From an uncultured Bdellovibrionales bacterium (GTDB lineage Bacteria > Patescibacteriota > Minisyncoccia > Moranbacterales > UBA1568), in the NCBI GenBank assembly GCA_964612055.1, contig CAZTBI010000004.1, forward strand, positions 1-58,844: a stretch of DNA of 58,844 nucleotides, given 5' to 3'. Shown here piece by piece: positions 28,814-30,512 of this stretch. The position numbers were made by a program, and so were the translations under genes. Numbering within the stretch: position 1 is the stretch's first letter; each line of letters opens with the position of its first letter. The notes beneath the pieces are model-generated. The model ran no database searches and was not told where the DNA came from. It was given only the letters and a program-made list of their open reading frames with translations.

Positions 28814-29566
28814 CTAGTGTTCCGGCGCAAGCGTTGCCATTTTCAGGAAGACCAGGGTCAACATAGCAAAAACCACCGCCTGGATAAACCCAACGAACAC
28901 TTCGAGAAACATGAACGGCAGTGGCAGGAAATACGGCACCAGGTGGAGCATGACCGTAAGGAGCACTTCACCAGCAAAGACGTTTCCAAACAAACGAAAG
29001 GTGAAGGAAATAATTTTCCCTACTTCACTGACGAGCTCTAAGATACCTACTGCTGTACCGATACCGTAAGGCTTATGAAACGGGCTGATGAAAAACTTTT
29101 TGCCATACTTCACGATACCGAGCGCCGCGATACCGGTAAACTGCACCGTGATCACCGTAATGAGCGAAAGTGCCAAGGTAAAATTAAGGTCAGCCGAAGT
29201 ACTGCGAAGAAAGGGAATGATTGTATGATGACCATTGTGTTCACCGTAAATACCAACCGTCCCGAGTCCCGGCAGAAGCCCGGCCCAGTTGGAAATAAGC
29301 ACAAAGAGAAAGATGGTGGCGATGAGCGGGAAAAACTGACGCGCCTGTTTCTTGTCCTGAGTGACACTTTCTACCAATTCCAAAAGTGCTTCAAAAATAA
29401 TTTCCAAAACATTCTGCACACCCCGAGGAACCAGGGTCAAGTTCTTGGTAGCGCGCGTCGTGAGAAAAATAAGAAAGGCGCTGACGATCACGCCAATCAA
29501 AAGCGCATTGGTCACCGGAAGAAACCCAAGGCTAAACAATTTTTCTGCGGCAATAGAGATTTCCAC
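28814..29566 (-). CDS. atpB: ATP synthase subunit a (GTG start)
   Basis: SNWAGLLPG, RSTSADLN, FRLFGNVFAGE, QAVVFAML. Confidence 0.97.
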   Translation of the reverse strand: MEISIAAEKLFSLGFLPVTNALLIGVIVSAFLIFLTTRATKNLTLVPRGVQNVLEIIFEALLELVESVTQDKKQARQFFPLIATIFLFVLISNWAGLLPGLGTVGIYGEHNGHHTIIPFLRSTSADLNFTLALSLITVITVQFTGIAALGIVKYGKKFFISPFHKPYGIGTAVGILELVSEVGKIISFTFRLFGNVFAGEVLLTVMLHLVPYFLPLPFMFLEVFVGFIQAVVFAMLTLVFLKMATLAPEH

Positions 29567-29686
29567 CCCGTTAGAGATAATGATTAAAAACTACGGCACC
29601 CTTCCCTTTCACTCCAATACGTCAGAATCATTTGATTGAATATATCCACCAAAATCTCTAACGGGGTCCATGTCGTTTTAAGTATA
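29565..29686 (-). promoter_or_regulatory. atp operon leader: -10 TATACT, 20-aa uORF (29609-29671) and 14-bp helix covering the atpB start
   Basis: 29654-29667 is the exact reverse complement of 29565-29578. Confidence 0.65.
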
Positions 29687-29710
29687 CAAAAAGAAGGTTT
29701 CCCCTTCTTT
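29687..29710 (-). terminator. Terminator hairpin upstream of atp leader
   Basis: AAAGAAGG-GGAAA-CCTTCTTT-TTG. Confidence 0.6.
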
Positions 29711-29762
29711 TTTGGCGCTTCTATTGTACGTACAAAAGACACTTTCGTCAAACGTCTGATTT

Positions 29763-30512
29763 TCAGCGCTCCTGCACCTGCTTCAGTTCTTTTTCCGTCT
29801 GCTTTAGTTCTTCACTGACCACCAAGCGTTCTCGTTCAAACTGTTGCAGTACCTTTCTCTGAGCCTCTCTCAGGATAACATCTTCCTGTTCCTCGATCTT
29901 AGCTTTCAAGCTAATAATGTCCGTGCTCATCTGAGCATAATCGGCTTCCAGCCGCCCCAAATCAATACGCAGTGCCTCCATTTCTTTTTGAACTTCCTCA
30001 TCGCTTTTCGGTTCCGACAATCTGCGCTCTATTTGGGAATCCGATTCGATAAGATCGCTTTTTACCGCACCACGCAACTCACTTCCATCAGAAGATGGGG
30101 TTTCCGCCACTCTTTTAGCGGCCGCCCAAGCATCTTCTACTCCACTCCCACGAAGCTTACTCGGATCAATACGAAAATCTTCCAATCCCCCTGGACCACG
30201 AGAGATATTTACATCTTTCGCTCTTTGCTCGGCAGCTTTTCGAGGCTCAATACCGGAAGCAAGTAGGTCTTCCTCGCTCCTATCGAGACTGTGAAATTCT
30301 TTTCTCAGGACCATTTCCTTTACACGCTCGTCGCCGTCATCATCTGTCTCAACCCCCTGATCCGTCAGCTCTTGCGGGCTGATCTTAAATTCATCGATGG
30401 CACTTCCTCTAAATTCAAACGCCGGCTCTTTCGACTTTGGCTTCTCAAGCGGCGGCAGATCACTCTTCCCCACATGAAACTCAAAGTCACCTCCCCGTTC
30501 TCTTGCTCCCAT
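29763..30512 (-). CDS. Acidic orphan protein with C-terminal coiled coil
   Basis: 249-aa E/K-rich ORF with heptads; no family recognised. Confidence 0.65.
   Translation of the reverse strand: MGARERGGDFEFHVGKSDLPPLEKPKSKEPAFEFRGSAIDEFKISPQELTDQGVETDDDGDERVKEMVLRKEFHSLDRSEEDLLASGIEPRKAAEQRAKDVNISRGPGGLEDFRIDPSKLRGSGVEDAWAAAKRVAETPSSDGSELRGAVKSDLIESDSQIERRLSEPKSDEEVQKEMEALRIDLGRLEADYAQMSTDIISLKAKIEEQEDVILREAQRKVLQQFERERLVVSEELKQTEKELKQVQER

Follow-up and report, generated by a model that had tools for sequence, protein, structure and literature searches.

The atpB gene in the 58,844-nucleotide stretch of DNA analysed here (the whole of which is referred to as the window) raises the question of how a start codon that appears to be locked inside a perfect RNA helix can be used. 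The original prediction for this locus described a 14-bp helix with a 75-nt loop over the atpB start, together with a near-leaderless uORF running over the 5′ strand of the helix, and took the arrangement to be a possible undescribed attenuator. Our comparisons point to a different origin. We consider it very probable that a small MITE-like element has inserted into the start codon and rebuilt it, and we propose that ribosomes unmask the rebuilt codon. All coordinates are positions in the window, and the atpB locus is read on the minus strand, where the order is ...TACAATAGAAGCGCCAAAAAAGAAGGGGAAACCTTCTTTTTGTATACTTAAAACGAC ATG GACCCCGTTAGAGAT ...75 nt... ATCTCTAACGGG GTG GAA ATC TCT...

The helix itself is as predicted. 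Its arms, ACCCCGTTAGAGAT (29667-29654) and ATCTCTAACGGGGT (29578-29565), are complementary at 14 of 14 positions across the 75-nt spacer, and the 3′ arm closes with the GT of the atpB GTG (29566-29564). The ORF is likewise confirmed, with an ATG at 29671 starting MDPVRDFGGYIQSNDSDVLE, which runs over the 5′ arm and ends at a TGA (29611-29609). No other perfect inverted repeat of at least 14 nt occurs in the 58.8-kb window, where around 0.02-0.04 would be expected by chance (our own arithmetic, window length x ~190 spacings x 4^-14), and hence the repeat is not a chance occurrence. The MFE and centroid folds of a 151-nt stretch both contain the helix, the total folding energy of this stretch being ordinary (z = -0.35, with 68 of 200 shuffled sequences folding as well); it is exceptional for its perfection, not for the folding energy of its surroundings. 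In the Rfam scan that the original prediction named as a check, run over 29400-29900 with E values up to 10, no family reached its gathering score: the only two hits, attributed to chance, scored 19.2 bits (E = 1.4, gathering score 48.5) and 16.1 bits (E = 2.2, gathering score 47).

The atpB product belongs to the ATP-synt_A family (PF00119, E 6.7e-45), and matches to PF00137, PF00430 and PF00213 downstream confirm atpE, atpF and atpH, with atpA assigned by ORF size only. The absence of atpI and atpZ, noted previously, holds as far as the adjacent gene is concerned, the ORF upstream of atpB (249 aa) having no Pfam match. The genome (0.94 Mb) holds a single copy of atpB, which sits in the atp operon, and the gene must still be expressed. 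The features of the locus are collected in Table 1.

Table 1. Features of the atpB leader region, in window coordinates.
Feature	Position	Strand	Remarks
Sigma-70-type atp operon promoter, TTGACG-17-TACAAT	29723..29751	-	10/12 consensus matches
Leader hairpin, AAAAAGAAGG-GGAAA-CCTTCTTTTT into U-run	29688..29712	-	folds at -11 kcal/mol
‘uORF’, 20 codons + stop	29609..29671	-	codons 2-6 read the 5′ inverted repeat; relatives read ATGGAAAT here
Target-site duplication TGGA, upstream copy	29667..29670	-	direct repeat; empty sites have a single TGGA
MITE-like element, 101 bp, 75-nt non-coding interior	29566..29666	-	TIRs 13 nt
Target-site duplication TGGA, downstream copy	29562..29565	-	with the element's G (29566) makes GTG
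atpB (F0 subunit a), 250 aa, GTG start, first of atpB-E-F-H-A	28814..29566	-	PF00119

In order to place the helix among related leaders, we compared the regions upstream of atpB in the window and in 29 other genomes of the same genus, giving 30 loci. The window carries 105 extra bases in comparison to its relatives and reads ATGGA, then CCCCGTTAGAGAT...ATCTCTAACGGGG, then TGGAAATCTC. The site is empty in 27 of the 30 loci, which read ...ATGGAAAT... with a single TGGA and contain neither helix nor uORF. The same pattern separates G015 (93% AtpB identity), which is filled, from G002, which is empty. The sequences CCCCGTTAGAGAT (29666-29654) and ATCTCTAACGGGG (29578-29566) are perfect 13-nt TIRs, extended to 14 by a flanking A-T pair, and the 14-bp helix is these two TIRs plus that one pair.

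Judged from these alignments, a 101-bp non-coding mobile element has inserted at TGGA within the ancestral start, ATG/GAA, duplicating the TGGA. The ATG of the ‘uORF’ (29671-29669) is the ancestral atpB start codon, and the present GTG consists of the last G of the element followed by the TG of the duplication. With the GTG rebuilt in this way the N-terminus of the protein is unchanged, and (fMet)EISIAAEKLF is identical to the N-terminus of relatives. The results contradict the reading of the empty sites as deletions of an ancestral structured leader, and other copies with duplications exist, as described below.

The transcription signals and the leader 5′ of the old ATG are ancestral, and the element separates them from the coding sequence. 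TTGACG-17-TACAAT is the sole consensus promoter on the atpB strand, and a promoter of the form TTGAC-N17-19-TAnnnT is found at the equivalent place in 29 of the 30 related loci. Its position (29751-29723) predicts a TSS near 29716, some 45 nt before the old ATG, hence the uORF is not near-leaderless and the earlier placement of its ATG 2-3 nt after the TSS has to be given up. The leader hairpin is identical in the empty-site relatives L007, L013, L014 and L024 and belongs to the pre-insertion atpB leader; in L007 (genome G018) the AAGAAGGGGAAACCTTCTT hairpin of the window is followed by ...CTCATGGAAATCTCC. The remaining relatives have a different hairpin with a T-run at the equivalent place. 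Near-universally within the genus the leader comprises a TTGACN-17-TACAAT promoter, a hairpin with a T-run, a short A/U-rich spacer and ATG GAA ATH TC, and the native leaders, on a by-eye reading, mostly lack a visible Shine-Dalgarno sequence. Inside the window element, the promoter search reported no outward promoter on the minus strand, from which a transcript without the 5′ arm could have arisen. The G015 copy of the element contains a candidate promoter, TTGACT-18-TAACAT, found by regular expression and by eye.

The element is a member of a family with the consensus (C/T)CCCGTTAGA...TCTAACGGG(G/A), around 100 bp in length and with a 4-bp duplication that is mostly TNNA, which is spread through the Moranbacteria. 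The window genome contains two copies and no solo copies of the motif; a DNA-uptake sequence was rejected as a candidate on the latter ground. The second copy (contig C2:106023-106123) lies within a TTGACA -35 box, and the TTGA duplication regenerates the box. The pattern CCCCGTTAGA-N60-130-TCTAACGGGG was found in 17 of 50 genomes of the genus, with up to 13 paired copies per genome, and the reversed control gave 0. Perfect 4-bp duplications accompany 24 of 47 pattern matches (TTGA/TCAA, TGGA/TCCA, TTTA, TGAA, CTTG or TAAG), and in 37 of 42 copies the flanking bases at -4 and -1 are T and A, respectively. A 10-nt TIR core is common to all family copies by ascertainment; positions 11, 12 and 13 of one TIR agree with those of the other in 40, 38 and 36 of the 42 copies, compared with the 16-19 expected. 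Copies are typically 97-106 bp long, and a second class of shorter ones lies near 67 bp.

Fourteen of 57 copies of the family lie at start codons and 11 of 57 at TTGAC -35 boxes, and in several more the insertion point coincides with the TCCA at the 3′ end of a tRNA or tmRNA gene. At each of these kinds of site the signal split by the element is restored by the duplication. Rough arithmetic with assumed gene numbers puts the proportion of random TGGARAT sites at start codons at around 2%, or around 17% if only intergenic and start-codon sites survive, and on this estimate the start-codon association exceeds a simple survival bias. Some copies were also seen in the anticodon region of tRNAs, and some bracket whole tRNA genes.

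When public metagenomes were searched for the 3′ junction TCTAACGGGRTGGARAT, at least 80 loci were obtained. In 51 of the 80 listed, an ORF begins at the junction codon and either reaches 60 aa or more or runs off the contig without a stop, and these ORFs represent around 40 different genes; eleven of them open with MEIRNIAIIAHVDHGKT, which we take to be the N-terminus of a translational GTPase. The listed elements end in A, rebuilding ATG, in 57 of 80 cases and in G, rebuilding GTG, in 23 of 80. No further atpB copies were present among these 80 loci. Start codons have hence been rebuilt in the manner of atpB at dozens of genes in ultra-small bacteria, and the interest of the atpB case lies in a mobile family that dwells on initiation codons in CPR bacteria, not in ATP-synthase regulation.

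Bacterial MITEs are non-autonomous derivatives of DDE transposons (PMC10969869, PMC2229807, PMC3184786). The present elements share with them a length of around 100 bp, TIRs, a short target-site duplication, the lack of coding sequence, multiple copies and the existence of filled and empty sites. MITEs can also be co-transcribed and fold as an RNA hairpin, a further probable likeness to the atpB element. Unlike MITEs generally, the copies have unrelated interiors between complementary arms of 13-17 nt, and they concentrate on start codons, -35 boxes and tRNA/tmRNA ends, where the duplication rebuilds the signal. A further difference concerns the parent IS. No autonomous element sharing these ends and encoding a transposase was found: the matches listed contain no inverted-repeat pair spaced 1-3 kb apart, and a screen of 50 genus genomes for one transposase family, the IS1380 type (NF033539), gave no hits. 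Full-text literature searches combining MITEs with Patescibacteria or with start codons returned nothing relevant and no published description, and the phrase ‘start codon’ is absent from a 2024 review of prokaryotic MITEs. The family, which sits on start codons in many Moranbacteria/CPR bacteria, is apparently undescribed.

At the atpB start the insertion is found in 7 of 107 family genomes, belonging to three genera. Six show the 3′ junction together with the atpB start, four of them from the same genus (G000, G015, G027 and G067) and two from two other genera of the family (G179 and G220); in the seventh, G069, the insertion is of the A-ending form and gives an ATG start. The upstream ATGGA is kept in all six genomes that were found through the 3′ junction alone and is intact in all seven. 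The other 100 family genomes lack the insertion, including the closest relatives G002, G009 and G026, and with the helix and uORF also missing from 27 of the 30 genus leaders, the conservation among CPR atpB leaders that an attenuator would call for is not seen. On the AtpB tree the insertion requires six gains or losses, at least four of which are forced by well-supported branches, and its clustering is no better than that of shuffled labels (158/500). Three of the filled genomes (G000, G015 and G069) fall in one clade with the empty-site genomes G002, G009 and G026. The tree cannot decide between repeated insertion at one permissive site and an old insertion followed by repeated precise loss.

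The seven copies resemble each other at their ends. Their arms are 85-100% identical, whereas their interiors reach 44-57% at best in optimised alignments made without a shuffled control, and interior similarity is at background (scores of 8-18, the background having a mean of 9.2 and its 95th percentile at 13). The uORFs all start MD(P/S)(V/M)R, diverge thereafter and end within the element after 12-20 codons; MDPVR, the sole part of the peptide that is shared, is the translation of the inverted repeat, and the position of the stop varies. Across the seven leaders 96.9% of helix cells are paired, and the changes in the 5′ arm (two non-pairing cells in G067 and one in G179, with a G.U wobble in G220) are uncompensated. 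Double changes at helix positions 12/13 and the T...A ends of G069 are subfamily traits seen elsewhere. A reading of these T...A termini as a compensatory change made in situ was withdrawn, the A-ending subfamily being common (57 of the 80 listed metagenome junctions).

Intact arms beside unrelated interiors are unlike plain decaying junk, and the helix may therefore be kept for a reason. The element could be a portable module that either seeks out initiation codons or persists there, with its helix kept by the host as a functional handle that either makes translation dependent on an upstream pioneer ribosome or is cut as RNA, possibly with re-ligation by RtcB. If true, this would explain the intact arms, duplication and ATG, the enrichment at start codons and the copies bracketing tRNA genes, and cutting with RtcB re-ligation would make the element a bacterial analogue of intron-generating MITEs. 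The unrelated interiors, the intact arms, the kept ATGGA and the case of G027, in which the atpB copy is the sole copy in the genome, would favour age and constraint. The uncompensated 5′-arm changes, and the occurrence elsewhere of the position 12/13 changes and the T...A ends, would count against selection for pairing at atpB, and we regard a helix kept by the host as unlikely.

The helix might instead be an RNase III site, with cleavage yielding a short-leader or leaderless atpB mRNA or, more speculatively, acting together with an RNA ligase to remove the element from the transcript and restore AUGGAAAU. All nine genomes tested, that of the window among them, encode both RNase III and a ligase of the RtcB family. 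Such processing would account for interiors that drift between intact arms, with the duplication and the upstream ATGGA also preserved, and for the tolerated copies in the anticodon region of tRNAs. Typical RNase III substrates span around two helical turns, however, and a helix of only 13-14 bp falls below this. The rebuilding of ATG in 57 of the 80 listed junctions is a second difficulty, as the terminal G or A matters only if the unprocessed junction codon is used. There is a precedent in Correia repeats, which are described in PMC2649163 as binding RNase III and being either cleaved or protected by it, and for which cleavage is located at the TIRs (PMC10969869). On balance RNA processing of this kind appears quite improbable.

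An attenuator evolved specifically for the atp operon, in which a near-leaderless uORF opens the start-codon helix and the whole is kept by selection, would draw on the sequestered start, on a uORF that covers the 5′ arm, on the recurrence of the same architecture at the atpB start in seven genomes from three genera, where ATGGA is intact and 96.9% of helix cells are paired, and on arms far better conserved than interiors. It is nevertheless very unlikely. The arrangement is absent from 100 of 107 family genomes, G002, G009 and G026 among them, and is scattered on the AtpB tree; its arms, duplication and length are those of a mobile family present at many unrelated sites, so that the supposed attenuator helix consists of TIRs found also at unrelated genes. 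The uORF peptide and its stop position vary, three lineage-specific cells of the 5′ arm depart from Watson-Crick pairing with no compensating change and one more is a G.U wobble, and the conserved promoter some 45 nt upstream means that the uORF is not leaderless. An origin of the repeat by chance, or from a contig that is chimeric or mis-assembled, might be argued from the unremarkable overall folding energy (z = -0.35) but has a negligible probability, given that only around 0.02-0.04 such repeats are expected per window, the same junction occurs in seven independent assemblies and the ends recur at dozens of loci.

We also calculated how deeply the start is buried. On the transcript from the inferred TSS, 14.0 kcal/mol is needed in the window to open the -12..+12 region around the functional start. 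The cost is 10.8-15.3 kcal/mol in the seven insert leaders compared with 4.3-6.9 kcal/mol in seven empty-site relatives, and at equilibrium the GTG is computed to be less accessible by several orders of magnitude. The old ATG, at 15.7 kcal/mol, is just as deeply buried at equilibrium as the GTG, hence a model that couples the two requires loading of the ribosome during transcription.

In such a model the repeats would pair on the mRNA and bury the GTG, but the old ATG and its initiation region would be transcribed some 90 nt ahead of the 3′ arm. In that interval a ribosome could load at the old ATG and translate codons 2-6, which are the 5′ arm; as this arm contains no stop in the uORF frame, the ribosome would necessarily traverse it. 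With the 5′ arm melted or occupied the 3′ arm would be single-stranded and the GTG free for a fresh or re-initiating ribosome. From the uORF stop to the GTG the distance is 42 nt in the window, compared with 52-74 nt in G027 and G015. Ribosome-driven unmasking of this sort appears to be the most plausible way in which atpB is still translated. That coupling via the old ATG would be a by-product of the insertion geometry, and not a purpose-built attenuator, is a tentative proposal that we consider quite possible.

In ermC-type leaders and translationally coupled operons, a ribosome on an upstream ORF melts a start-codon helix. The proposed principle would be the same at atpB, where a ribosome on the upstream ORF would melt the helix hiding the initiation codon. 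Unlike ermC-type leaders, the atpB leader has no conserved leader peptide, stalling signal or alternative helices, it originates by transposition and it is present in a minority of relatives.

A leader that resembles a riboswitch is explained here as a transposon scar, which removes a false lead on ATP-synthase regulation in CPR bacteria, and a mobile element is seen to split the start codon of an essential single-copy gene and leave the protein intact. Start codons held inside 13-14-bp helices behind a duplicated start offer natural experiments on translation initiation in Patescibacteria, and the elements may add a layer of gene control. They also present an annotation hazard, in the form of GTG starts, phantom uORFs and apparent leaders.

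Several other classes of small repeat were considered. Correia elements have repeats of around 26 bp, a TA duplication, an IHF site and outward promoters, and we know of no instance in which they split and rebuild start codons. Identity with Correia/CREE was rejected, as the repeats here are 13 nt of unrelated sequence, the duplication is a 4-bp TNNA and the interiors are unrelated. Co-transcribed hairpin MITEs of the Correia/ERIC type appear similar in their working, but none of their defining sequence features is shared. The likeness extends to small size, a gene-adjacent position, co-transcription and an RNA stem that alters expression of the neighbouring gene, which are reported for the Correia elements (CREE/NEMIS) of Neisseria in PMC2649163, along with IHF binding, a conserved core and an inverted repeat.

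An integron attC site was excluded by the order of its motifs, which is 5′-RYYYAAC ... GTTRRRY-3′ in attC and is reversed here on either strand (5′-..GTTAGAG ... CTCTAAC..-3′). A REPIN/PATE or IS200-IS605-type palindromic element does not fit with the direct 4-bp duplications that flank most copies, as such elements (RAYT or Y1 transposase, REP-type hairpins) insert beside a fixed tetranucleotide and make no target duplication. A tRNA-derived origin was also discarded, the window copy having no tRNA-like match in the Rfam scan. Rickettsia palindromic elements (RPEs; Ogata et al. 2000, cited in PMC10969869) are palindromic mini-elements that survive at essential genes of reduced genomes with the gene product kept, and the atpB insert with its duplication has an RPE-like in-frame length of 105 nt, or 35 codons. 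RPEs are translated in frame, whereas the atpB element is not. Although the old ATG is in frame with atpB, joining the two by read-through or an alternative code was rejected, as the TGA at 29611-29609 and then a TAG intervene; with these two stops in the frame of the old ATG, the AtpB protein starts after the element.

In nearly all members of the genus, a stretch beginning AGRRGCGC... starts 1-2 nt past the -10 box of the atp promoter (TTGACN-17-TACAAT) and folds as a GC hairpin followed by a T-run. The arrangement looks like an intrinsic terminator overlapping the expected transcription start site. A full terminator would form on read-through RNA coming from the upstream gene, while transcripts from the atp promoter itself may begin within the 5' arm of the putative terminator hairpin. 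In the subgroup to which the window belongs, the hairpin is shifted downstream by about 10 nt, and AGAAGCGC is nonetheless conserved. A promoter-like site, TAGAGA-16-GATAAT (9/12), is also seen at the window copy of the MITE-like family, where part of it is supplied by the conserved subterminal ATTATC together with the 3' inverted repeat. The site is oriented antisense to atpB, into the element, and the equivalent position in genome G220 reads CTTTATC.

The atpB gene of genome G007 (locus L021) likewise starts with GTG (GTGGAGATT), and upstream of it lies a different, long and imperfect palindrome (ACAACTCACAAC...GTTGTTAGTTATTAGTTGT). Hairpin insertions in general may have a hot spot at the start of atpB. 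Family copies are found at the start codons of two more genes, in two species each (loci L040 of G026 and L059 of G061; L068 of G007 and L070 of G073). The product of one gene begins VKRSEIYFS... and that of the other VKLSRKTYYGLRACLALAQ, the latter looking like an Rrf2-type regulator. The interiors of L068 and L070 are clearly homologous yet diverged, with the arms intact in both.

Elements of the ...AAGT/ACTTC... type contain a subterminal hairpin directly ahead of the 3' inverted repeat, whose sequence is variable and covarying (e.g., GTAGGAC-CGA-GTCCTAC and GGAAATC-TAAA-GATTTCC). The resulting layout, a hairpin followed after about 15 nt by the start codon, mimics that of the native atpB leader.

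Locations of the features described
Feature	Location	Strand	Genome or source
atp promoter and the hairpin following it	window 29688-29751; L002-L030	-	window; same-genus genomes
Antisense promoter-like site	window 29554-29581	+	window
...AAGT/ACTTC... element with subterminal hairpin	L002		G015
...AAGT/ACTTC... element with subterminal hairpin	L161		G067
...AAGT/ACTTC... element with subterminal hairpin	L176		G069
...AAGT/ACTTC... element with subterminal hairpin	many, e.g. L186, L193, L202, L212, L238		metagenomes
Copy enclosing a tRNA gene	L035 1501-1606		G033
Copy enclosing a tRNA gene	L041 1501-1610		G002
Minimal 28-bp element	L057 427-499, L031, L052		G061
RtcB-family RNA ligase gene	contig C1:194477-195850		G000 (genome of the window)

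Family copies also occur at the 3' ends of tmRNA (L061, L073 and L168, the identical tmRNA site in three genomes) and of tRNA-Ala (L174). At all four loci the insertion point is exactly the terminal TCCA of the gene and the duplication is TGGA/TCCA, so that the mature 3' end is preserved.

In the copies at L035 and L041 a complete tRNA gene (Val-CAC, Ala-CGC) is enclosed between the inverted repeats, and each copy is itself inserted within a further tRNA-like gene. At L035 this gene is a broken tRNA-Val-like copy, interrupted in its D-loop region, and at L041 the insertion lies in the anticodon region. The flanks of these two copies show no target duplication. Exact in silico removal of the L041 element led ARAGORN to call a tRNA-Val(UAC).

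The RtcB-family RNA ligase gene is retained in all nine genomes (G000 and eight others), all of which are smaller than 1.1 Mb and also encode RNase III. Retention of both enzymes is notable given the many hairpin insertions in tRNA, tmRNA and mRNA starts.

A minimal 28-bp 'element', consisting of two inverted repeats back to back and nothing else (CCCCGTTAGAATAGATATTCTAACGGGG), was found nested within larger family copies; the one at L057 has a CCAG duplication.
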